Below, piece by piece: positions 13,066 to 30,789 of a DNA stretch of 64,000 nucleotides. The notes under the pieces were generated by a model, which did not search any database, was not told the DNA's origin, and saw only the letters and a list, made by a program, of their open reading frames with translations. Position numbers and translations under genes: made by a program. Numbering within the stretch: position 1 is the stretch's first letter; each line of letters starts with the position of its first letter. Origin of the DNA: an uncultured bacterium (GTDB lineage Bacteria; Planctomycetota; UBA1135; GCA-002686595); assembly GCA_943787795.1 (NCBI GenBank), contig CALSNU010000003.1, forward strand, positions 256,001-320,000, written 5' to 3'.

Positions 13066-14418
13066 TTAGACGTTGACGAAGTCCGCGTCACTGGGGAGGT
13101 CGTGGTCGTCGGCTCTTCGATTGCGCTTGAAGTCATATCCGCGGGGGACACAGACGATCCCGGAGTCGGTGACCGTGAAGCGCTTACGGTCCTCGTCCAG
13201 GTCAACGCCGATCTCTGCGCCCGAGGGGACGGTGGTCCACTTGTCGATGATCGCCCGGCGGATGATGGCGCCAGGCTCTACGACGACGCCGTGCATCAGG
13301 ATGCTCTCCTCGATGTCCGCGTCCTCGCCTGAGCAGACGCGGTTCCCCATGATGGAGCGCCGCACCCGTGACCCGGAGATGATGGATCCATTACAGAGCA
13401 GGGAGTCCACGATCTGCGCGTGGTGCCCCTCTGGCTCCGAGAAGATCGTCTTGGCCGGCGGGTCGTTGTGCCAGAGCGTATAGATGGGCCAGTGCTTGTC
13501 GTACAGGTTGATCGAAGGCACCACCTGGCAGAGGTCCAGGTTGGCGTCGAAGTACGCGTCGAGCGTGCCCACGTCTCGCCAGTAAGGGGTGTTGCCCTTG
13601 GGGTCTTCCGACCTGGGGCCGCCTGCATTCTCTGCGCCGCTTGCGCCGCCGGCGGCGTCCACGTCACGGAAGGAGTGGGCGATGACCGTGGTGCCGTCCT
13701 CGACCATCGCAGGGAGCACGTCCTGGCCGAAGTCGTGGCTCGTCCCGGAGGTCTTGGCCATGTCCTCGCGGAGGCGCCGGATGAGCTCCTGCCGTTCGAA
13801 GATGTAGATCCCCATGGACCCCAGGCAGCGACCGGGCTTGCCCGGGATCTCCGTGCCGACCTCCGGCTTCTCCTGGAAGCCCGTCACCTGCGACCGGCCA
13901 TCGACCTCGAGGACGCCGAAGCGCGGCGCGTCCTCCGCGCCGATCTCCACGGCGCCGATGGTGCACTTGGCGCCGGCCTCGACGTGCTCCTCCAGCATGT
14001 CGCCGTAGTCCATCTTGTAGATGTGGTCGCCCGAGAGGATCACCACGTGATCACACTCGACCTGCTGGAGTAGCTCGAGGTTCTGGGCGATCGCGTCGGC
14101 GGTTCCCCGGTACCAGCTTCCCTGTCCGCCGTGTTGGGGGGGGCGCGGGACGATGAACTGGGAGAGACGACGGGGTAGGAAGTTCCAAGCGAGGCGCAGG
14201 TGCTCTTCCAGCGAATACGCCTGGTACTGCGTCAGCACGAAGACGCGCCGGAGTCCGGAGTGGATGACGTTCGATAGGGTGAAGTCGATGATCCGATAGG
14301 CCCCGCCGAAGGGCACTGCCGGCTTGGCGCGGCCGATCGTGAGCGGCGAGAGGCGCTCTCCGCGCCCTCCCGCGAGGACGAAGGTCAGCGTCGACTTGAG
14401 GAGCTGTGCGCGATTCAT
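13066..14418 (-). CDS. glgC: Glucose-1-phosphate adenylyltransferase
   Basis: VLAGGRGERLSPLT..RAKPAVPFGG.YRIIDF, WYRGTADA, LSGDHIYKMDY, SMGIYIF, HDFG and YWRDVGT. Confidence 0.97.
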   Translation of the reverse strand: MNRAQLLKSTLTFVLAGGRGERLSPLTIGRAKPAVPFGGAYRIIDFTLSNVIHSGLRRVFVLTQYQAYSLEEHLRLAWNFLPRRLSQFIVPRPPQHGGQGSWYRGTADAIAQNLELLQQVECDHVVILSGDHIYKMDYGDMLEEHVEAGAKCTIGAVEIGAEDAPRFGVLEVDGRSQVTGFQEKPEVGTEIPGKPGRCLGSMGIYIFERQELIRRLREDMAKTSGTSHDFGQDVLPAMVEDGTTVIAHSFRDVDAAGGASGAENAGGPRSEDPKGNTPYWRDVGTLDAYFDANLDLCQVVPSINLYDKHWPIYTLWHNDPPAKTIFSEPEGHHAQIVDSLLCNGSIISGSRVRRSIMGNRVCSGEDADIEESILMHGVVVEPGAIIRRAIIDKWTTVPSGAEIGVDLDEDRKRFTVTDSGIVCVPRGYDFKRNRRADDHDLPSDADFVNV

Positions 14419-14601
14419 GGGGGTGCGAGGGCCGGGGGCTCGGAATCCGCCTTGATCAGAACAGACTGGGAGCCCGGATAACAGATGACCCAGGGAGATC
14501 CTCCGCGACTCGACCTTTGATCTGGATCGCGCAGGTAGCTACCTTCCCAGGTGAAGGCGCTGTGCCAGAGCGCACGACCCGGGCCCACGGCTCCACCCCG
14601 A

Positions 14602-16599
14602 ATGTCTGCCCCTCTTCTGCGTCGACTTCAACAGCCCAGGGAACTCCACTCGGAGCCCCTTGGTGGCCGCCGCTGGTGCTCCACCGCGACCGACGCCCGC
14701 GACATCGCGTCCACGGGCCCGCACCTCATCGGGCTCCCCGAGCGGGTCCTCTGGTCCTCTGGGCGCCGCGCGGCTGACGGGCTCCTCGTGGCGGAGCGTC
14801 TCGACGACGGGCTGCTGGTGGCCGAGACCGCCGACCTGCCGGGCGAGCCGATCGTGTGGCTGGGTGACCTGGCCGTGACCCTGGGCGAAGATCCTGAGGT
14901 TGGAGATCCGGAGCCGAGCGCCCTGGCTTCGGCGCCTGTCGGGCTCGGAGCACCCAGGATCCGCCTCGGCACCCTCACGCCTCGGGTCGAGGCGGTCTGG
15001 TCCGTCAACGAGTCGCTGGCGCGGGTTGAGTGCACGCTGCCCTGCCGCCCGGTCGGCCAACGCACCCACCAGAACGATGCGCTCGATCCCCGAGTGCAGT
15101 TGGAGGCCACCGAGTCGGGGGCGGTCGCGCGCGTACGCCCCTATCCCGGGATGCCGGCGATCATCCTTCGCTTCAACGGCGACGTCACCCTTGTGGGGGC
15201 CGCGCTCTGGCATTCGGACGTCGCGGTCCTCGACCGCACGGGGCCCATCGGCGTCGAGGATCGATTCTCGCCGGGAGTGTTCCTGGTTCGTCTGCCCGAG
15301 ACCGCCACGAGCCTGCGGGTGACGGTTGAGGTCGAGGCGGACCTGGTCCGCGCCGGCGACCGGCGCGCTGGAGTCGACGCCGAGCCCGCCGCCGAGCCTG
15401 ACGCTGAGCCTGACGCTGAGCCTGACGCCGAGCCTGACGCCGAGCCTGAAGCTGGGCCGGGAGTTGGGCCCCTGTCGGCCGCCGTCACGGCGCGCGGACG
15501 GCTCATGGACATCCTCTCTGCCCCGGGGCTCGCGCTCGAGGCGGGCTGGAGCCCCGATCAGATCTCCAGCTGGATCAAGCACCATGTGGCCGCCGCCGTG
15601 ACCGCCATCGGGGGCCCCGGTGAGGTCGCCGGGGATGACTCCGCCCTGTGGCTGGGGCGTACGTGCCAGCTGCTCCTACGTAACCTCCGATCGGCCTGGG
15701 GCCCGCTGACTTATCGGGGGCTCGTGGAGGACTGCTTTGCTCCGGCGGTCGCCTCGATGGTCGACGCGATCCTCGCCGAGGCACCCGGTGCCGCGTCAGC
15801 CTCGGAGCTGAGCGACGGCGCGGTGGGGGAGAGCCCTCCCACCGATGGGGTCGCCGGGTTCGCTGGAGCAGGCCCGGGTGAGGAGACGAGCCCCGGGGCC
15901 GCGCGGTTCCGGGGGACCCGTCGCTGGTACGAGGTGCTCGCCTCCACCCCGTCCGTCCCGCGCGGAGCGGTGTGCGTGGAGGCCGGCGCGCTCCTGCACC
16001 AGCTGTTCATCTTTGATGAGCAGCTTTGCCGGATGACATCGAACGGGCCGCGGCGCGAGCAAGCTGCGCGCCGCGCGCTGGACGCCCGCCGCTGGTTTCA
16101 GCGGGCCTTCTGGCTCTCGACGCCGCGGCGGCTCGCGGACCTCGAGGTGAGCGGGTCGGACCCCGTTGGCGGGACGGCCCTGTCCATGCGGGCCGGGATG
16201 CTCGTGGCGGCTGCCCTCGAGGGGGCGCCCCTGGATCAGATGCAGCGCCGCGCCGTGGTGAACGCGGCGGATGAGCGCCTGCTGACGCCCCTTGGGGTGC
16301 GGTCCATCGATCGAGCGGACCTTGGGTTTCACCAGGATTCGCCGGTGGACGGCGCGGTCTGGCCGTGGCTCCTCGGGATGCACGTCGAGGCGGCGATCAG
16401 GGCGTTCGGGCGAGACTTCGTCCGCCTCGACTTCGAGGAGAGCCTGCTGGCGGCCATCGATGGCGCGCCTGAAGCCTGGGCCGAACGCTCGGAAGGCGGC
16501 GTGTCGCCGATCGGAGACTTGACCTTCCCCCCTGCCAGCGGCGAGTCCATTCGAGCGTTCCGCCTCCTGACCGAGGTCCTGGGCGGAACACCGGAGTGA
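14602..16599 (+). CDS. Amylo-alpha-1,6-glucosidase (archaeal/Bacteroidota-type debranching enzyme)-like protein, strongly diverged
   Basis: LLTPLGVRSI, GAVWPWLLG, PRGAVCVEAGAL and DDSALW remain. It heads a GT4-GH57 operon. Start is uncertain (GTG 14551 or ATG 14602). Confidence 0.7.
   Translation: MSAPLLRRLQQPRELHSEPLGGRRWCSTATDARDIASTGPHLIGLPERVLWSSGRRAADGLLVAERLDDGLLVAETADLPGEPIVWLGDLAVTLGEDPEVGDPEPSALASAPVGLGAPRIRLGTLTPRVEAVWSVNESLARVECTLPCRPVGQRTHQNDALDPRVQLEATESGAVARVRPYPGMPAIILRFNGDVTLVGAALWHSDVAVLDRTGPIGVEDRFSPGVFLVRLPETATSLRVTVEVEADLVRAGDRRAGVDAEPAAEPDAEPDAEPDAEPDAEPEAGPGVGPLSAAVTARGRLMDILSAPGLALEAGWSPDQISSWIKHHVAAAVTAIGGPGEVAGDDSALWLGRTCQLLLRNLRSAWGPLTYRGLVEDCFAPAVASMVDAILAEAPGAASASELSDGAVGESPPTDGVAGFAGAGPGEETSPGAARFRGTRRWYEVLASTPSVPRGAVCVEAGALLHQLFIFDEQLCRMTSNGPRREQAARRALDARRWFQRAFWLSTPRRLADLEVSGSDPVGGTALSMRAGMLVAAALEGAPLDQMQRRAVVNAADERLLTPLGVRSIDRADLGFHQDSPVDGAVWPWLLGMHVEAAIRAFGRDFVRLDFEESLLAAIDGAPEAWAERSEGGVSPIGDLTFPPASGESIRAFRLLTEVLGGTPE
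15382..15453 (+). repeat. In-frame 12 bp tandem repeat x6 encoding EPDA
   Basis: gagcctgacgc(t/c) units inside the debranching-like CDS. Confidence 0.9.
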
Positions 16600-17939
16600 T
16601 GAAGGTACTGGTTCTTGGCTGGGAGTATCCCCCGGCCGTGGCGGGCGGACTGGGGGCGGCGTGCCACGGGCTCACCACCGCCCTCGCCGATCGCGGTCAC
16701 GAGGTGATCCTGTGCACGCCCGCGGACGGCGCTCCGGCAGACCCGGCGCCGTACCCCGGGATCGAGCGCGTGTCCCTCGGCGGTGACGCCTCGTTCTCCC
16801 CGTTTCACCCCGGGGCCGTGCTGGACCCTTATGCCGTGGATACGGCTCCCGGCTCGGCCAGCGCATCGGGGTCGCTCGTGCCACCCGTATCCTCTGGGGC
16901 GGCTGTCGCGGGGGCCGCGTCGGTGGAGGCTGGCTCAACGGGGCTCGGTTCATCCCGCCCTGACTCCCACGCGCAGAGCGCCCGCAAGCTGTACGGCGAG
17001 GACCTCTCGACGGCGATCCAGCGCTACTCCCGTGAGGCGGTGACCCGCCTCAAGGGTCGAGACTTCGACGTGGTCCATGCCCACGACTGGATGACGTTCC
17101 CCGCGGCGCTCCGCCTGCGCTTCGCGCGCCGACGACCCGTGTGCCTCCACGTGCACTCCACGGCGATCGACCGGGGCGGGGTATCCGCGCCGGGGCCGGT
17201 GGGGTCCATCAGCGCGGTGGAGCGCGCCGGGCTCCGCACGGCGGATCGGGTCTGCGCGGTCAGCGGCTTCACCAGGGATCTCCTTGTGCGTGAATATCGC
17301 CTCGACCCCGAGCGGGTCAGCGTCGTGCATAACGCGGCGCCTTCCGGCGTGGATTCGTCTCCCGAGAGGGTGGTCGGGCCGGAGGGCCCCACGGTCCTCT
17401 TCGTCGGGCGCTTGACCCGCCAGAAGGGCGTCGGCTTCCTGGTCCGAGCGGCGGCCCGGGTCCTGGAGTCCTGCCCGGCGGCGCGCTTTGTGTTCATGGG
17501 GGAGGGGGAGGATCGGACGCGGATGATCGAGATGGCTGCGGCCCTCGGGATCGGCCGGAGGGTCTTCTTTGCCGGTGGCGTGACCTCGGAGCTGCGCGAC
17601 CGCGCCTACGCCGAGGCCAGCGTCTTCGTGCTCTCCTCGGTCTCGGAGCCCTTCGGCCTGACGCCGCTTGAGGCCCTGCGCGGTGGCGCCGCTCCCGTCC
17701 TCACCGACGCCTGTGGCGTCCGCGAGGTCTTGCCCTCCGCCCCCGTGTGTCCCCCCTGGGATGCTGCCGGCCTGTCGGCCCAGATCGTCACCTTGCTCAC
17801 CGACGAGGCCCGACGCCTCGCGGTCGTTGAACAGGGCCGAGCAGAGCTCGAGCGCCTGACCTGGGCCGAGAGTGCCCGCCACCTAGAGGCTGCCCTGGAG
17901 AAGGCGCGGTCCACCTCCGGGAGGAGGACCACCGGATGA
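16599..17939 (+). CDS. GT4 glycosyltransferase (putative alpha-glucan/glycogen synthase type)
   Basis: MKVLVLGWEYPPAVAGGLGAAC, HAHDWMT, HVHST, FVGRLTRQKG and SEPFGLTPLEA. TGATG overlap with the upstream gene. Confidence 0.9.
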   Translation: MKVLVLGWEYPPAVAGGLGAACHGLTTALADRGHEVILCTPADGAPADPAPYPGIERVSLGGDASFSPFHPGAVLDPYAVDTAPGSASASGSLVPPVSSGAAVAGAASVEAGSTGLGSSRPDSHAQSARKLYGEDLSTAIQRYSREAVTRLKGRDFDVVHAHDWMTFPAALRLRFARRRPVCLHVHSTAIDRGGVSAPGPVGSISAVERAGLRTADRVCAVSGFTRDLLVREYRLDPERVSVVHNAAPSGVDSSPERVVGPEGPTVLFVGRLTRQKGVGFLVRAAARVLESCPAARFVFMGEGEDRTRMIEMAAALGIGRRVFFAGGVTSELRDRAYAEASVFVLSSVSEPFGLTPLEALRGGAAPVLTDACGVREVLPSAPVCPPWDAAGLSAQIVTLLTDEARRLAVVEQGRAELERLTWAESARHLEAALEKARSTSGRRTTG

Positions 17940-19120
17940 CCTCGATCGTCTACTACTTCCAGGTCCATCAGCCCTACCGGGTGAAGCCCTTTCCCTACGA
18001 CGCGATCGGCGCCCGGTCCGACTACTGGGATGACTGGCTCAACGAGGACGTGGCCAAGCGCGTGGCAGAGAAGTGCTACCTGCCCATGAACCGCCAGCTC
18101 CTGCGGGCGGTGGAGCGCTCGGATGGCGCCTTTCGGTGCAGCTTCTCGGTCTCGGGTACCGCCATTCGTCAGCTCGCCGCCTGGGCGCCTGAGGCCCTCG
18201 AGAGCTTTCGCGACCTCGCGGAGAGCGGTTCGGTGGAGTTCATGTGCGAGACCTCCCGGCACAGCCTCGCTGCGCTCGTGGACCCAGAGGAGTTCAAGGC
18301 TCAGGTCGCAGAGCAGCGCGCGCTGCTGAAGGAGCACCTCGGCGTCGAGCCCACGGCCTTCCGCAACACCGAGCTGATCACGGACGCGAGCGTCGCTCAG
18401 CAGGTGAAGGACCTGGGCTTCGAGGTGCTGCTCGCCGAGGGTGCCGATCAGCTCCTCCACGGCCGGACGGCCCAGGCCCTGTACGGCATGGCGGGGGCAG
18501 GCGGCTTCCCCCTGATCCTCCGGGACTTCCAGCTCTCCGACGACATCGGGTTCCGCTTCAGCAACCAGGGCTGGGAGGGGTATCCCCTGCTCGCGCCCAC
18601 CTTCAACGGGTGGCTCGAGTCCCTCCCTGACGAGCGTCCGTTCGTCGGGCTCTTCATGGACTACGAGACCTTCGGCGAGCACCAGTCGCGGGATACCGGG
18701 ATCTTCGACTTCATGGACACCATGGTCGACCTCGCCGTGGCCTCGGACAAGCTGGACTTCGCGACCCCGACGGAGATCGCCCGGCGAGATCCAATCGTGG
18801 AGGACCTGGACTATCCACGCCCGATCTCCTGGGCGGACGAGGAGCGGGACGTCTCGGCCTGGCTTGGCAATCACATGCAGCGCGCGGCGCACGAGGCCAT
18901 CTACAAGCTCGGCCCCGCGGCGCGAGCCTCGGGGGATGCGGACCTGCTGAACACGTGGCGGGACTTCACCACCTCGGATCACGTGTACTACATGTCGACG
19001 AAGTGTGAGACTGACGGCGACGTGCACGAGTACTTCAGCCCCTACGACAGCCCGCACGATGCTTACCTCAACGTGATGAACGCGCTCGAGGACCTGCGGC
19101 GGCGGCTCGGCGCGGACTGA
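17936..19120 (+). CDS. GH57 family alpha-amylase / glycoside hydrolase
   Basis: FQVHQPYR, FRNTELI, LSDDIGFRFS, FMDYETFGEHQ, SWADEERD and SDHVYYMSTK. Confidence 0.92.
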   Translation: MTSIVYYFQVHQPYRVKPFPYDAIGARSDYWDDWLNEDVAKRVAEKCYLPMNRQLLRAVERSDGAFRCSFSVSGTAIRQLAAWAPEALESFRDLAESGSVEFMCETSRHSLAALVDPEEFKAQVAEQRALLKEHLGVEPTAFRNTELITDASVAQQVKDLGFEVLLAEGADQLLHGRTAQALYGMAGAGGFPLILRDFQLSDDIGFRFSNQGWEGYPLLAPTFNGWLESLPDERPFVGLFMDYETFGEHQSRDTGIFDFMDTMVDLAVASDKLDFATPTEIARRDPIVEDLDYPRPISWADEERDVSAWLGNHMQRAAHEAIYKLGPAARASGDADLLNTWRDFTTSDHVYYMSTKCETDGDVHEYFSPYDSPHDAYLNVMNALEDLRRRLGAD

Positions 19121-19299: not shown

Positions 19300-22200
19300 A
19301 TGCTGTCGGCGCTCCTTCTCTCTCTCGCGGGTCTTTGCTCCCAGGAGCCGAGCCTGCCGGGGCCTGACCCACTGGACGGGGCGGAGGCGATCTCCAACTC
19401 GGTGACCCGGCTGGCCCGAGAGCTCGATAGGGCTTACCTGGCCACCGGAGATCCCCTCGGGGGCGACGTCGGTGAGGCGTGGATCGACGCGGACGCGCGG
19501 GCCGTGGTTGTGGGGGACTCCGCCAAGGGAAGCTCCGCCAAGGGGGACCCGACCGAGGAAGACGGGCGCGCCAAGTCGACCTGGTCCACCGCCACTGCGC
19601 CGCGTCCGATCTCGGTCGCGCGGGCCCTCGACGTCGCCCTCGTGCTCGACGCGTCCACGGGCCCGGAGGACGCGGCCGAGGATGTCCGCGCCGCCTTCAG
19701 CGCGGTGACCGAGGCCCTCGGGGGCCGGCCGACGCGCGCGGCGGAGGTCAGCTCGAAGGCCGTGCTCCCGACGGGGGACGGTGGATGGGACGTTCGACTG
19801 CGCGTCCGGCACCTGCGCCAGGCCCCAGGCGGTGGGGCGGCCTCGGTGCGGTCCATCTGGAACCTGCGGGTGACCGAGGCGCCGGAAGGTCCCCTGCGCA
19901 TTCTCGGTTGGGCGGCGGCGATCACCGAGCGGGTGGCGCTGGCGGGTGAGCCCGCATCCGAACCCGCGTTCGAGGACGTGACCGGAACGCTGCTCGGCGC
20001 CACGCCGGCCACCGCCGGGCTGGCCGAGTCGATCATGGACCTGCGGGACCGCCTGGACGTGGACGTCGGGGTCGGACTCCTCGGGCACCACGGGGTGGCG
20101 GTGGCTGACGTCAACGGCGACGGGCTCGAGGACCTCTACCTCTGTCAGCCCGGCGGCGTCCCCAACCAACTGTGGCTCCGGCTCCCTGACGGAGGGTTCA
20201 TGGAGGCGGCGCGGGGTGGGGGCCTCGATCTGGTGGACGCCACGACCAGCGTGCTGTTCGTCGACCTCGACCGTGACGCCGACCTCGACGTGGTGCTCGG
20301 GTTGGCCTCGGGGGTCGTGGTCCTGGCCAGGACGGACCAGGGGTACGTGGAGGCCGAACGCTTCGAGCGCACCGGGGTCACGAGCCTCGCGGCCGCGGAC
20401 ATCAACATGGACGGCCTGCTTGATATCTACGCCTGCGCCTACGCGAACCCCTACGACGGCTCCACCTTCCCTCTGCCCTACCACGACGCGGAGAACGGCC
20501 AGGCCAATCTCCTGATCGCAAACGTGACCGAGGAGCCCGACCAGCTGATCCTCGGAGACGCGACGGTGGAGACGGGGCTGGACCGAGACGGCTCACGCTT
20601 CAGCTTCGCGGCGACCTTCGAGGACGTCGACGACGACGGAGACCCCGACCTCTACGTCGCGAACGACTTCGGGCGGAACACGCTCTACGTCAACAACGGC
20701 ACGGGCTACTTCAGGAACATGGCGCCCGAGCTCGGCGTGGAGGACGTGGCCGCGGGGATGGGGGCCGCCTTCGCGGACCTCGACCGGGACGGGCGGGTCG
20801 ACCTGTATGTGAGCAACATGGAGTCCTCGGCCGGGCGGCGGATCACGGCGCAGGGCGCGTTCCAGAGCGACGCCGACGAGGGCACGCTGTCCCTGTACCG
20901 GCGCCACGCGAAGGGCAACACGCTCTTTCTCAGGTCGCCGGAGGGCGGGTTCCTGGAGTCGGGGCTGGCGACGGCCGGTCAATGGGCCTGGGGCGGCATC
21001 CCCGTGGATCTGGACGGGAACGGGTGGCTGGACCTCTTTGTTCCCAACGGGTTCGTCTCCGCTTCCCGGCGAGGCGCCCCGGATCTCTGAAGCTCGTTCT
21101 GGCGGCACGTGGTGTCGCGCTCACCTCTGAATGAGAGCACGGACGGTGCTCCGGTCGGCGAGGCGGATTCCAGCGGCACCGGCACCAGCAGCGACCGCTA
21201 CTTCGAGGGCTGGGCCGACCTGAACGAACGCCTGCGCCGCGGAGAGCCGTGGAGCGGCGGCGAGCGCAACGCCGCGTTCATCAACTCCGGAAGCGCTGAC
21301 GTCGACCGCGCGGACGTCGACTTCGTGGACGCCGGCCCGGTGCTTGGGCTCGACTATCCGGACGACGGCCGCAGCGCGGCGCGCATGGACATCGACTTCG
21401 ACGGGGATGATGACCTCATCGTCTCGAACCGCACGGCGCCGCGCGTTCGGGTCCTCGCCAACCGTTTGGCTGATGGGGCGGAGCACCTCGCGGTTCGCCT
21501 GAGGGGAACCGCGTCCAACCGCGACGCGGTCGGGGGCGTGGTCTTCGCGACGACCACCAGCGTTGACGGCGAGACCGAGACGCAGCGCCGGACCCGATCC
21601 GCGGGTTCGGGCTACCTGGCACAGTCGTCCGCATGGCTCAGGTTTGGCTTCGGGCGCCGCGGCGGCGGCGCCCGACCAGCGCGCGCGCGGAGGGTCAAGC
21701 TGCAGGTGCGTTGGCCGGGCTCGCAGGCGCTGGAGGACTTCGGAGAGGTTCGGACGGGGCGGCGCTATGTGCTGGTGGAGGGCCAAGGGACGGCGAGCGA
21801 GGCCTCGGCGCCCAATCGACTCGTGCTCTCCCCGGGGCCCCTCCTTGCGGCACCGTCGGAGCTCGACGGACGCCGCCGGTTGGTCCTGCCCTCTCCTACC
21901 TCGATCCCCGGCCTGGAGTTGCGCGGGCGTGGGGGCCGCGCAGGGCGGGTCTTCGGGCTCACCCCCGACGGCCCCCTCGGGACCGGTCGGAACACGGTGG
22001 TCGCGGTCTGGGACTCGAGCGATTCAGCGGCGATCCAGGGGCTGGGCGACCTGGCCGCGCTGAGCTCTTCGGCGGCAGGCGCGGACGTCGCGCTGGTGTC
22101 CGTGGACCTCGGGGGACAGCGGGTGGAGGCCAGCTCGGTCGCGGGCGCCCCGGACCCGCTCGACTTCAGCTCCACGCGCCTGGCCGCGGCCGGCTGGGGT

Positions 22201-23004
22201 GGCGGCGTGTTCGCGCCGATCGGCGAGGCCGCGCTCATCGTCCCCGAGCTCGTGAGCTGGCGCCTGGACCGCGCCGATCCGCCGCCGCTGCCCTGGTTCC
22301 TGGTCTTCGAGCCGGACGGCCGTCTCGCCATCGTCCGCACCGGCGCCTGGCGGGCGGGGGACCTGGAGGCGGACCTCAACGTGTTCGCTCAGCCCCTGCT
22401 CCAGCGCCCGGCCTGGTCCACGCCCTTCCCTGGCCGATGGGCGGATCCTCCGGGCGAGGCGGACCTCGGGCGCCTGCGATCGCGATTGATCCGGCGCGGG
22501 GCCTTGGGGGCCGCGCGTGAGCTGGAGCTGGGCCGTATCAAGACCGTCTCCCTGGGCAGCGCGGAGGTGAAGATCCGGCTCGGGCGGGCGGACCTGGAGC
22601 GGGGGGATCTCGAAGGTGCGGTGGCCCGCTTCGACGCTGCCATCGAGCTTGAGCCGAGCAGCGCCCTCGCCCGGCGCGGTCGGGCCTACGCCCTCCATCG
22701 GCTCGCCCGCTATCCCGAGGCGCTCGATGAGTGGACGCGGGCCCTGGCGCTCGAGCCTCGCGACATCGCCACCCTCGGCAACCGTGCCCTCGCGGCTGTG
22801 GCGGCTGGAAACCTCGAGGTCGCGCGGGAGGATCTGAATGAACTCACCCGCCGCGAGGGGGTCGCCGCGCCCGTGGTCCGGGCCGTCTGGCAGGCCGTGG
22901 AAGACGCGTCTCAGCTGCCGAGCAGCGGCCAAGGCGCGGGCAGCGGCGACGGCGAGGACGGCGGCGACGGTCTGGACGCCCCGGGTGAAGGTGGAACCCG
23001 ATGA
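19300..23004 (+). CDS. Secreted FG-GAP/VCBS-repeat + ASPIC/UnbV + degenerate redoxin-like + TPR protein, spanning an in-frame TGA at 21088-21090 (1234 aa if read through)
   Basis: ORFs 19300-21090 and 21109-23004 are in the same frame, separated only by TGA and six sense codons. FG-GAP repeats occur on both sides (DVNGDGLEDLY ... DLDGNGWLDLF before; DIDFDGDDDLI after), then ASPIC-type NRDAVGG, AGSGYLAQSS, VRWPG and C-terminal TPRs. The families are secure; the single-polypeptide reading is inferred. Confidence 0.7.
21088..21123 (+). promoter_or_regulatory. In-frame UGA followed by a bacterial SECIS-like hairpin
   Basis: Stem GCGGCAC (21102-21108) pairs with GTGTCGC (21112-21118). The loop is GTG and the stem starts 11 nt after the UGA. 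Confidence 0.5.
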
Positions 23005-23513
23005 GGGCGCTGTACATCGTGCGCCATGCCGAGGCCGCCATGACGTCGGCCTCCGGGGATCACGGTCGGCCGCTCTCGCCGCGCGGTGAACTCTGCGCCC
23101 AAGCGCTTGGCGCGATGCTCGTACGGCTCGGACAGGAGCCGGGGCAGCTGCTCTGCTCTGACGCGTTGCGGGCCAGGATGACGGCGGAGGGCGCTCGCGC
23201 CGAGGGGCGCTTGGGGGCCGAGATCGAGCTCGTCCCCGACCTCTACCTTGCCTCCGCTCAGACGCTGACGGCCGCCGCGCGCAAGGCGCGGGTCGAGTCC
23301 ACCCGGCTGTTGGTGGTGGCCCATCAGCCTGGACTCTCCGAGTGGATTCATCGCCTGACCGGCGGCCCGCAGCTCGCCTTTGCTCCGGCCTCCGTGGCGC
23401 GGGTGGACGTGGACCTCTCCTCATGGGCGGACCTCTCGCCTGGGACGGGGACCCTCCGCTGGGTGGTGGGGCCCGGCCAGGCGGCCGCCTTTCGTGAGCT
23501 CGCCGAGGGTTGA
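23001..23513 (+). CDS. sixA: Phosphohistidine phosphatase SixA family
   Basis: LYIVRHAEA, D..RPLSPRG, CSDALRARMTA and VAHQPG. ATGA overlap with the upstream gene. Confidence 0.85.
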   Translation: MRALYIVRHAEAAMTSASGDHGRPLSPRGELCAQALGAMLVRLGQEPGQLLCSDALRARMTAEGARAEGRLGAEIELVPDLYLASAQTLTAAARKARVESTRLLVVAHQPGLSEWIHRLTGGPQLAFAPASVARVDVDLSSWADLSPGTGTLRWVVGPGQAAAFRELAEG

Positions 23514-23592
23514 ACCCGAAGGGTGGAATCCGTCGAGCTGGGCCCGCTGAGCGGAACCCGCGGAGCTGATTCCTCTGAGTGTTCCCTGGGCT

Positions 23593-23648
23593 GAATCCTC
23601 TGGGCCGAATCCTCTGGGCCGAATCCTCTAGGCCGAATCCTCTAGGCC
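23593..23648. repeat. Intergenic tandem repeat, 14 bp x4 (gaatcctct[g/a]ggcc), with decayed copies upstream to about 23512
   Basis: Units start at 23593, 23607, 23621 and 23635. Confidence 0.88.
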
Positions 23649-23761
23649 GGCCATGGCCCCCTCCAGGGGGCGGGGCCCAGGGCGAGAGCCGACGTTTTGG
23701 TGGAAGGCGGGGGGCTCGTTTCCGAACAGGTCCTGGGGCGCTTACTCTCCCCGGCGGATCC

Positions 23762-25709
23762 ATGCCTGAAGCTTCACGCCCCCAGCCTCCGATTTCCCTC
23801 ACGCAGCGTCCCCTCACGCAGCGTCCCCTCACGCAGCGCCTCCGTGACCTTCATGGAGCGCTGGGCGAACTCGTGGCGCCCGGTGGCCCGGGGGGAGAGG
23901 CCGTGGCTGCCGTACGCTCGCGCCTGGAGCGAGATCTGCTCCCCAGGACGGCCGGTGGGCATGAGCACCTGGTGGTGGGGATCGTCGGACCCAACAACGC
24001 GGGCAAGTCCTCGCTCTTCAACGCGCTGGTGGCCGGCGAGGGCGCGGCGCCCAGGGTCCTGAGTCCAGCCGAGCCGACGGGCGGGGCGACGCGCCGGCTG
24101 GTGGGGGCGCTCTCGCCAGCGCTGCGCGCGGCCCTCGAGGCCGAGCCCACCATGCGGCGATTCGATCTCCGTCCGGTGACCTGCGGGGCCGGCGGCGTGG
24201 AAGAGGCCAGGGAGTCCGCCGAACCCGGTGCCGAGGCGGCGCTGTTCCTCGTGGAGTCGGACGTGCTCCCGGACGGCCTGCTGCTCGTGGACACCCCCGA
24301 CTTCGACAGCGTGCTCCGGGAGAACCGTGCCGTGACCGACGCCCTGCTCGAGGTGGCAGACGTCGCGGTGGTTGTGGTGACCCGGCACACCTATCAGAAC
24401 CACGACGTCATCGAGTTTCTATCGGGCTGGCTCGAGCACGGCCGGCCCTGGGTGCTCGTCTACAACGAGTCCATCGACGACGCGACCACCGCAGCCCACG
24501 CCCGCAAGGTCGAGGAGGATCTGGCACAGGCGGCCGAGGCGATCTTCGCCGCCGCGTTCGATCCTGGGGTCGCGCGGGGGGAGGCGCCGCTGGAGCCGCG
24601 CGACCTGCGAGACCCGGGCGTCTCCCTCGCGGGCTGGTTGCGCGCGCTGGGGGACCGCGGCGATCTCAAGGCGCGAGCCATGGAGGCGTCACTGGCCGCC
24701 CTCAGGGAGGGCCTCGGGGAGCTGGGCCTCGAGTGTCGCCGGGCCATCGGCGCCGTGGCGCAGGCGAGAGGCTCGCTGCTGGAGTCGGCGACCCCGCTCG
24801 GTCGCGCGGTGGCGAGGGAGGCGATGCCCATGGGCCCGTTCCTGGAGGCCTTCCGTGATGTGCTGGATGAGCGGCCGACGCTCGTCCAACGAGAGCTGCG
24901 TCGAGGGCTACGGTGGACCGGCGATCAGCTCGCTGGCGGGCTGCGCTGGGCCAGGCGGCAGCTGACCGGCGGCGCGCAGGGGCCGTCGGCCGACGACATC
25001 GCCGAGCGGACCCTCCTCGAGGTGGAGCGCGTGGAGCTCGAGCGCCGTTGGGCTGGATTCTTCGAGCCCGCCCAGCGCCGCCTGCGCGAGCTCGCGCGCG
25101 ACGGCGGCCTGCCACCCCCGGGCGGTCGAGGCGCTCGAGGTCGAGCTTGGCGCGGCGCCGGGGCGAGGCTCCGGGGCCGGAGCGGTTTCCCCGGCCCGCG
25201 CCTCATTTGACCGGGCGGCCGCTGCGCTGGCCCTCGACCCTGGCCTGCTCGAGGAGCACCGAGCAGCGTGCCGTGAGATCATTCGAGAGGAGTTGGACCG
25301 TCAGGGCTCCGAGGCCTTCCTGCAGCTCGCGGTCGACGTGGTGCACCTGCTGCCGCTGGGCGTGGCCGGCGCGCTCATCGTGCACACCGGCGGCCTGGGG
25401 AGCGACGTGGCCGTGGCCGGCGGGGGTGCGGCAGCGGCGGCCCTGGCGGAGCGCCTCTCCCGGACCCTGGGCACCGGGGTGGCCTTGGCCGCCCGCTCGC
25501 GTTGGACGGAACTGCGCGCGGCCCGAATCGCCGAGGCGGCGCTGGCTGGCCTCTTGGGGCCAGCGGCGGGCGTCTTCAAGAACGTCGAGGCCGAGGCGGC
25601 CGAGTTGCGCTCCACCTGCGACGAGTGGGCGGCGCCCGCGGCGTGGAGCTGGGACCTGAACGACCCGGCTGCCCAGGCGGCGGCGCGCGGCGAGGAGTCA
25701 CCGATATGA
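23762..25709 (+). CDS. Dynamin-like/TRAFAC GTPase 1 with C-terminal membrane segment; one extra base (frameshift) near 25115-25119
   Basis: G1 GPNNAGKSS and G3 DTPD. Removing one C from the C5 run joins ORF 23579-25210 to ORF 25293-25709 and restores an ATGA overlap with the next gene. Confidence 0.75.
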
Positions 25710-27466
25710 TGAATGAACGATCGCAGGCCTCCCGAGGTGAGCTCGGGCGCCTTCACCAGGAGCTGCAGCGAGACCTGCGGGCCATCGAGCCCCTGCGAGC
25801 CATCGCCGATCGAGCGGGGGAGCTCGCTGGCTTCGAGGAGGACCTCGCGGAGCAGCTGGAGCGAGCCAGCTCAGCCGCGGTGGTCTGTCTGGTCGGTTCA
25901 ACGGGGGCGGGCAAGTCGACCCTCTTGAACGCGCTGGTCGGGCGGGACATCGCCACGGAGGGTGTCGATCGACCCACGACATCGGCGCCGGTGATCTACC
26001 GGCCGGCTGACGCGGATATCTCGGAGCTCCTCACAGGGCTCCCGGGAGAGCCGCCGCGGGTGGTGACCTACGACCCCAGGGACGGGGGCGGCGTGGAGGC
26101 CTTCTGGCGGGGGCAGATCCTCGTCGACGCGCCGGACACCAACAGCGTCGAGACCGGTCACCGAGAGGTGGTGCGTGCCCTCGCGGCCCGCTCGGACGTG
26201 CTCGTCGTCGTGGCCCATCGTCAGTCGGTGGCCGAGCTGAGCTCCGCCGCCTTCGTGGATCTCTTCGCGGGTCGCCGCGGGATGATCTTCGTCCTCGGCC
26301 GGAGGGATGAGCTCGACGCAGCCGCGGACGCGGAGCTGCGGGCTCAGCTGAGGGGGCTGGCAGCGGACCGGTGGGGCGCGGAGGGGGCGCCCGTCCTCTC
26401 GGTGAGCGCACGCCGCGGCAAGGAGGGGGCAGACGCCGGTGGCCTCCCGGAGCTCCGGCGAGTCCTCGGCGACCTGATCTCGGAGGAGCGCCTCGGGAGC
26501 GTGCGGCGCCAGAATGCCGTGGGCAACGTGGCGCGCATCGGGGCGGAGATCTCGGAGGTGGGGCCGGAGGTCGAGGCGGCCGCCGAGCGCCTGCGGGAAG
26601 GCCTGGAGGCCGGCGCCGCGGCGTGGTGCGGTCGCACCGTGGCGCTGGTCAACGAGCGGCTCGATCAGCGCAAGGCGGACCTCTCGCGAATGCTCTGGAA
26701 CGACGCCGCCAAGGTCTGGGACGGCCCGGGCGGATATGCCCTGCGGGTCGGAGGGCTCGGGACCCTCGGCCTCGGGGCTGGCGCGGCGGTCGCGCGGCGC
26801 AACCCGCTGCTCGCCGCGGGGCTGGCGGCAGGGAGCATCGCCGCGTCACGGGTGCAGGGCGCGGTCCGCGATCGCGCCTTCGAGTCCACCTCGGGTCTCC
26901 TGCCTGGGGGCAGCGAGCTCGCGGAGCTGCAACGGGCAGCCTTCGTCGATGCGCGGGTCGCGGCAGCCGAGCTCGCGGTGGATGAGGCCGCGATCGGCCT
27001 CGCGCCCGCCGAGAGCGAACTCTCAGCCTGCGCGGCCGGCGCCGTGGATGAGGCATGGGATCGCTTGCTGCGCGTGGACCTGCCCCGTGAGGCTCGTCGT
27101 GGCGTCCCCAGGCCCCTTCGCGCCCTGGTGGATCTGCCCGTGTTCGGGCTGGGCGGGTGGGTGCTCTACCGGACGGTCGAGGGCTTCATCGCCGAGCAAT
27201 ACGTGGGAGTCGACTTCCTCGTCAGCGCCACGATCATCGCGCTCGCCTGGCTCTTCGGGGCACGGGTCCTGGTGCGCGCCCGCTTCGCGGGGCGTAGCGC
27301 GGCGCTCCTCTCGCAGGTCCGTGGTGACATCGAGCAGCGCGTCGGGGCCGCCGCCAGCCGGGCCATCGGGGAGCCGTCGGAGCGGCTCGAGATCCTCCTG
27401 GGCGGCCTTCGGCGAGTGGAGTTGGCGGACCGCGCTTGGCGGCGTCGCCTGCACGGCGGAGAATGA
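25706..27466 (+). CDS. Dynamin-like/TRAFAC GTPase 2 with helical stalk and hydrophobic segments
   Basis: G1 GSTGAGKST, G2 RPTT, G3 DAPD; Gly-rich hydrophobic hairpin and C-terminal TM-like segments. Confidence 0.8.
   Translation: MMNERSQASRGELGRLHQELQRDLRAIEPLRAIADRAGELAGFEEDLAEQLERASSAAVVCLVGSTGAGKSTLLNALVGRDIATEGVDRPTTSAPVIYRPADADISELLTGLPGEPPRVVTYDPRDGGGVEAFWRGQILVDAPDTNSVETGHREVVRALAARSDVLVVVAHRQSVAELSSAAFVDLFAGRRGMIFVLGRRDELDAAADAELRAQLRGLAADRWGAEGAPVLSVSARRGKEGADAGGLPELRRVLGDLISEERLGSVRRQNAVGNVARIGAEISEVGPEVEAAAERLREGLEAGAAAWCGRTVALVNERLDQRKADLSRMLWNDAAKVWDGPGGYALRVGGLGTLGLGAGAAVARRNPLLAAGLAAGSIAASRVQGAVRDRAFESTSGLLPGGSELAELQRAAFVDARVAAAELAVDEAAIGLAPAESELSACAAGAVDEAWDRLLRVDLPREARRGVPRPLRALVDLPVFGLGGWVLYRTVEGFIAEQYVGVDFLVSATIIALAWLFGARVLVRARFAGRSAALLSQVRGDIEQRVGAAASRAIGEPSERLEILLGGLRRVELADRAWRRRLHGGE

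Positions 27467-28875: not shown

Positions 28876-30789
<1,914 letters not shown>

Follow-up and report, generated by a model that had tools for sequence, protein, structure and literature searches.

A probable selenocysteine codon within a CRTAC1/UnbV-type propeller gene of an uncultured planctomycete

Here we report on a gene in a 64,000-nucleotide stretch of DNA from an uncultured planctomycete (positions 256,001 to 320,000, forward strand, of contig CALSNU010000003.1, assembly GCA_943787795.1; hereafter the window, its genome being G000) that is interrupted by a single in-frame UGA, which on comparison of its relatives is very likely read as selenocysteine (Sec). The best explanation overall, to which we give a probability of roughly 80%, is that SelB decodes this UGA in an exported propeller protein resembling CRTAC1, and that Sec597 is likely a redox-active nucleophile. 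The codon is conserved and very likely specifies Sec, and the family that carries it is uncatalogued; this joins a known decoding mechanism to a new carrier fold whose function we infer.

An earlier note on this DNA, made from the sequence alone, had not recognized the fold as a described selenoprotein family. Consistent with this, FG-GAP, ASPIC, UnbV and CRTAC1 are absent from the 119 prokaryotic selenoprotein families in Table 1 of a 2026 review (PMC13188914), and no selenoprotein model of NCBIfam 20.0 matches at E 0.1. The accessible portions of PMC13745706 and PMC3174227 do not mention the family as a selenoprotein. Literature linking selenoproteins or selenocysteine to ASPIC, CRTAC1 or FG-GAP yielded unrelated items only, from a coverage that leaves out most subscription journals and so does not prove absence from print.

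A conserved UGA and the hairpin behind it

The frame at 19300-23004 (this frame and the parts of the gene given below lie on the + strand) contains one internal stop, the TGA at 21088-21090, codon 597, in the context RGAPDL*SSFWRHVVSRSP. If that codon is Sec, the two called open reading frames (ORFs) on either side, which share a frame as the earlier note had seen, join into one frame of 1234 codons ending at a true TGA stop. The note's predicted product, 1234 residues with Sec at position 597, is supported by the conservation of the TGA, by a hairpin linked to it and by the Sec machinery of the genome. Its remark that no ribosome-binding site precedes the GTG at 21109 carries little weight, because there is no clear one ahead of the ATG at 19300 either; that called GTG "start" of the second ORF (21109-21111) is the hairpin loop itself. 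The TGA is neither unique to this assembly nor an assembly error, since contig record 20 of run X4, from an independent study (P3), covers 19550-23600 with nine differences and leaves it untouched. The sequencing runs that contain window DNA are marine, and the close relatives with names are mostly Planctomycetota metagenome-assembled genomes (MAGs).

Searched with a profile built from 22 junctions, 97 of 121 genomes of the class (E 1e-20) and 59 of 251 genomes of the phylum (E 1e-30) gave matches, with up to eight family matches per genome in the phylum sample; so did 17 of 91 genomes in the phylum to which the Acidobacteriota MAG G370 belongs (E 1e-35; this last figure takes in the unpublished genome G421, which supports nothing else here). 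The TGA form was also present in one Archangiaceae MAG, and four genomes reached through weak Acidobacteriota hits gave no family match. Tabulating the aligned codon, a check proposed in the earlier note, gave TGA at 130 of 185 distinct junctions and TAA or TAG at none (52/98, 59/66 and 19/21 TGA in three sets), a ratio that is not a census because the loci had been selected: top hits, weak hits from the phylum, and hits without a stop that were sought deliberately. The 55 sense-codon junctions encode Glu (20), Gln (11), Asp (6), Ala (6), Cys (4), Ser (3), Arg (3) and Gly (2), and 41 full-length database proteins carry Glu (14), Ser (9), Asp (6), Asn (4), Ala (4), Cys (3) and Arg (1). Of the two residues that the earlier note had named for tabulation, Ser is among the usual ones, together with Glu, Gln, Asp and Ala, and Cys is rare (loci L087 and L156-L158; proteins P0119, P0121 and P0162). 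Of 16 hits in a single-protein database search, only four were full-length homologues that carry the motif; a search of protein representatives was dominated by long repeat proteins, with the whole motif in 37 of the 150 matches listed. The window genome itself has five family members, three with TGA and two with CAG; a full-length paralogue at C1 near 1248719 combines the Sec-type codon with a CxxC.

Eleven nucleotides after the UGA, as the note had placed it, lies a hairpin of the bacterial selenocysteine insertion sequence (SECIS) type (21102-21118), in which a 7-bp stem, GCGGCAC (21102-21108) with GTGTCGC (21112-21118), closes a GUG loop (GTG, 21109-21111) that begins 18 nt after the UGA. 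With its 3-nt loop, G first, and -10.3 kcal/mol, it agrees with the bacterial SECIS consensus model given in PMC13188914. The caution that short stems arise easily at this GC content proved sound: some G-loop stem of at least 6 bp lies near 23.6% of 107,773 six-frame TGA stops of the GC-rich window genome. Across the family, nevertheless, the linkage of hairpin to TGA is far beyond chance, though the window hairpin alone is ordinary. Under a register-free rule, with duplicates and junctions containing N removed and Acidobacteriota loci left out, a hairpin stands at 103 of 106 TGA junctions, where synonymous-codon shuffles give 10.0, and at 6 of 53 sense-codon junctions, where they give 5.8. 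In a fixed register, a complete 6-bp stem is found in 51/52 TGA junctions versus 3/46 others; the register has moved by 1-2 nt in distant subfamilies.

The stem also covaries, which was another of the proposed checks. Among the fixed-register junctions, pair 15:25 is GU in 33, AU in 10, CG in 7, GC in 1 and UA in 1, and pair 17:23 likewise shows several pair types. Within the window's own clade, CGG/TCG (12) alternates with CGC/GCG (5), coupling an Arg third base to a Ser-to-Ala codon, and CAC/GTG (16) with TAC/GTA (1), coupling a His-to-Tyr change to a Val third base.

The genes required for Sec insertion, whose presence the note had wished to see checked, are complete in the window genome: selA, selB, selD and tRNA-Sec are all encoded, each above its curated cut-off. 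There selA adjoins selD (G000:C5:184589-187201), selB is on C1 and tRNA-Sec is at C3:34220; selD has an in-frame TGA of its own, with a hairpin 11 nt behind it, the spacing of the window gene. In the phylum sample selA is present in 53 of 53 TGA-carrying genomes, against a background of 187 of 251; of the 46 TGA carriers that belong to other orders, 45 have selB. Only one of the 64 phylum genomes without selA has the family, G141 (91% complete), and its member reads TGC at the site and has no hairpin; selB, selD and tRNA-Sec were likewise not found in that genome.

Some individual loci may be mentioned here. L154 (G158:C78:24600-25750) has two extra in-frame TGAs, 21 and 25 codons past the site, with family sequence continuing, and is possibly a three-Sec form or a decaying one. 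L155 (G280:C19:1-16000) holds four tandem TGA-type paralogues within 16 kb, three of them with a CxxC motif. At L205 (G394:C1:1153725-1157177) a TGA-type member stands directly upstream of selA (C1:1156960-1158321, same strand). A weak match with an internal TAA was seen at G013:C12 (E 1e-4).

Predicted fold and partner thiols

The protein begins with a predicted signal peptide (19300-19344; mean hydropathy 2.2 over residues 1-13) and is probably exported, though probably not as a lipoprotein, because Cys13 is not kept in most orthologues. An N-terminal domain without a Pfam or NCBIfam match (19345-19962; 35-59% identity within the clade) precedes an FG-GAP beta-propeller (residues 222-722, 19963-21465; Pfam PF13517), an ASPIC/UnbV domain (residues 743-823, 21526-21768; Pfam PF07593, above cut-off), a degenerate TlpA/ResA-like redoxin domain of approximate limits (21892-22389; from alignment) and TPR repeats (residues 1090-1194, 22567-22881; TPR_11, TPR_2 and TPR_16). 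FG-GAP matches thus begin before the stop, UnbV_ASPIC and TPR follow it, and the propeller predicted from Pfam and AlphaFold2 spans the UGA, in keeping with the earlier observation that the FG-GAP series continues past it. AlphaFold2, given 66 sequences with Sec entered as Cys, modeled residues 222-842 with a predicted local distance difference test score (pLDDT) of 92.8 and a predicted template modeling score (pTM) of 0.94. The top structural match is murine CRTAC1 (PDB 9etn; Z 43.6, root-mean-square deviation 2.2 over 459 residues; next match Z 32.0), and Foldseek places the same structure at E 5e-27 with TM-scores of 0.67/0.75.

In the model, residue 597 is the second residue of a helix (596-603) that forms part of a long loop inserted into one blade, past the strand LDLFV and ahead of the next strand. 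In the FG-GAP propeller topology, inter-strand loops of this kind are found on one face and the calcium loops, for which DxDxDG loops in the sequence are candidates here, on the other. Apart from those in the calcium loops, the invariant residues (N455, D456, M487, R514, W562, W601, D689 and R691) are in loops of the same kinds as the Sec loop, and Sec would thus lie in a pocket on the propeller face that bears them. There is no conserved Cys near the site in sequence.

The C-terminal part of the family matches the TlpA and ResA structures PDB 1jfu and 1st9 (profile, E 6e-14), and relatives carry WxxWCxxC. The earlier description of the fold as a non-oxidoreductase was therefore half right: most Sec-type relatives have this domain with its CxxC, and in the window protein it is degenerate. 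A CxxC lies 230-320 residues past the site in 56 of the 76 TGA loci long enough to score versus 0 of 8 sense-codon loci; outside the window's clade the figure is 56/59, and in Acidobacteriota it is 19/19 for TGA loci versus 0/2 for sense-codon loci. Among database proteins, three too short being dropped, 5 of 35 with a non-Cys residue at the site have the motif, as do 2 of 3 with Cys. This distribution suggests that Sec and the fused TlpA-like CxxC form a redox pair, since this CxxC is mostly missing where Glu, Ser, Asp or Gln stands at the site. A FastTree of 123 core sequences, rooted at its midpoint and built with the site masked, has some weak deep nodes; on it Sec with CxxC is spread throughout, and the sense-codon forms sit at several unconnected points, a pattern suggesting that loss has happened repeatedly.

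Of the 20 TGA loci without CxxC, 17 form one clade, that of the window (support 1.0), whose sister L026 has the motif (0.998). The window protein reads WDSSDSAA where relatives read WASWCAPC, so that Asp908 and Ala911 take the place of the two Cys; its only Cys residues are 13, 282 and 379, and none follows residue 597. Junction-region identity within the clade is 52-85%, and because a clade of this divergence keeps the TGA, together with the hairpin, in 17 of 17 members, selection must still act on Sec although the thiols in cis are gone.

Based on these observations, we consider it very likely that SelB and tRNA-Sec decode the UGA at the hairpin that follows, which would give one 1234-residue, probably exported protein, and we propose that Sec597, at a helix start in a propeller-face loop, would attack or reduce a substrate bound outside the cytoplasm. 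Sec would then be re-reduced in most relatives by the fused CxxC domain; in the window's clade a separate thioredoxin would do so, since the CxxC is gone and no Cys follows Sec. Candidates for this partner are the two CxxC-bearing family paralogues of the window genome and several putative UxxC thioredoxin-like proteins. A redox-catalytic role for Sec597 seems to us rather probable; its recycling in trans in the window's clade is a tentative proposal, held with slightly less than even confidence. The wider reading is evenly balanced: the CRTAC1/UnbV-type propellers of Planctomycetota and Acidobacteriota could be an unrecognized class of extracytoplasmic selenoenzymes, with Sec in a propeller pocket and a fused CxxC as built-in reductant, missed because sense relatives carry Glu, Gln, Ser or Asp in place of Cys, and in the window's clade the Sec chemistry would be unchanged but no reductant would be built in.

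A motif scan of the window genome, from which names are read, gave candidate selenoproteins with hairpins and UxxC thioredoxin-like or GrdB-like motifs at C1:576891 (+), C2:479457 (-), C6:69375 (+) and 70102 (+), C7:99959 (+) and C8:38655 (+). The two C6 sites, about 730 nt apart, may belong to one two-Sec protein.

Alternative readings of the codon

Several observations count against Sec insertion or its redox use. Taken alone, the window hairpin is no more stable than shuffled sequence (z -0.35 to -0.79 over three short segments, +0.60 over 100 nt). Cys, the usual counterpart in typical selenoproteins, is scarce at the site (4/55 sense junctions, 3/41 database proteins), and the window protein's own lack of CxxC makes the redox reading less secure for this gene in particular. 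The co-occurrence test has less force than it seems to have, because the family is nearly limited to selA-positive genomes whatever its codon (58 of 59) and because related genomes are not independent. Moreover, selA was not found in the TGA carriers G003, G450 and G369, all three of which have tRNA-Sec, and selB was not above cut-off in G155 and G003, both again with tRNA-Sec. G450 contains a translation-factor GTPase match to the selB model (C6:15269-16447; E 4e-57, below cut-off) with one internal TGA.

That the UGA is a true stop, marking a conserved split into two proteins, a pseudogene or a sequencing error, is scarcely credible. Gene callers do give two ORFs, and RNA runs X16 and X18 yield only short, patchy contigs on either side of the TGA, which show neither a single transcript nor a strand and of which none bridges the site under a 31-letter rule. 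A stop would, however, be expected to drift to TAA or TAG, and none of the 130 did; it would also cut a blade of a confidently predicted propeller, and conservation extends through the stretch from the TGA to the first GTG, where W601 is invariant. Intact sense-codon homologues exist, and the independent-study contig carries the TGA. Only a little less improbable is readthrough by another route, with Trp or Cys inserted by a near-cognate tRNA or under a reassigned code, to which the mostly non-Cys residues aligned with the site might seem to point. Yet Trp never occurs there among the 55 genomic and 41 database sense forms, and the hairpin matches the bacterial SECIS model and tracks the TGA. 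UGA is still a stop in the window genome, since RF2 was found, tRNA-Sec is the only UCA-anticodon tRNA among the 45 tRNAs found, and the gene itself ends in TGA; on the first two points we reject a reassigned code.

The alternative that deserves most thought accepts Sec and changes its use. In the window's clade it could be a metal ligand, for binding or sensing soft metals, or a nucleophile in group transfer that is not re-reduced, the redoxin domain now being structural. We regard this as unlikely, though well ahead of the two readings above. It would accommodate the retention of TGA and hairpin codons in 17/17 clade members despite CxxC loss, the lack of any Cys past the site in 10 of the 17 (in the sequence available) and the frequency of Glu and Asp, both oxygen ligands, as replacements. 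Elsewhere in the family, however, Sec tracks CxxC and the two are lost jointly, a pattern suggesting that Sec originally served thiol-redox chemistry, and the absence of a conserved Cys near the site also speaks against it.

Known systems and neighboring genes

The window gene resembles those of bacterial SelB/SECIS selenoproteins such as FdhA and SelD in the in-frame UGA and the hairpin within the ORF, with its 7-bp stem, G-first loop and the spacing of selD in the same genome; it differs from them in that the carrier is an FG-GAP propeller, Sec has no Cys neighbor motif and Cys homologues are rare. With murine CRTAC1 and other ASPIC/UnbV proteins the window protein shares the FG-GAP propeller followed by an ASPIC/UnbV domain, in the CRTAC1 fold, but identity is only 17-23%, and it adds the N-terminal domain, the redoxin domain, the TPRs and the Sec-bearing helical loop insert, which did not align to CRTAC1 by sequence. 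Unlike the periplasmic thioredoxins TlpA and ResA, the family has its redoxin fused to a propeller and its Sec some 270-310 residues upstream, outside the CxxC; their CxxC active site is absent from the window protein, its clade having lost both Cys.

The finding would add a large, multi-copy family to the bacterial selenoproteome (three Sec-type copies in the window genome), in a fold without a listed selenoprotein, and gene callers cut such genes in two. The deep-Sep paper (PMC12013277) says that every known selenoprotein appears to possess Cys homologues and that its method may fail to detect any that has none; the present family exposes that blind spot of searches for Cys/TGA pairs, a limit which the paper itself names. 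It also makes the chemistry of bacterial CRTAC1/ASPIC/UnbV proteins testable for the first time, through a single residue, the CxxC domain that goes with it, and natural controls in which one or both have been lost, the window's clade being the control that separates Sec from its partner thiols.

The surrounding genes, though syntenic in close relatives, suggest no shared function. Upstream is a glycogen-type cluster (13066-19120) of a GlgC-like nucleotidyltransferase, an amylo-alpha-1,6-glucosidase, a GT4 and a GH57 protein. A link of UnbV to enediyne clusters was not used, no paper having been found for it and no such cluster lying in the neighborhood. A SixA-like histidine-phosphatase gene (23001-23513) overlaps the stop codon of the UGA gene (ATGA) and is followed by two dynamin-like GTPase genes (23579-27466); the phosphatase and first GTPase genes are syntenic in L039 and L041-L044. 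Farther along is dnaK (28876-30789). In run X9, one strain carries 18 extra bases, inserted in frame at 22937 in the low-complexity C-terminal tail of the UGA-containing gene.

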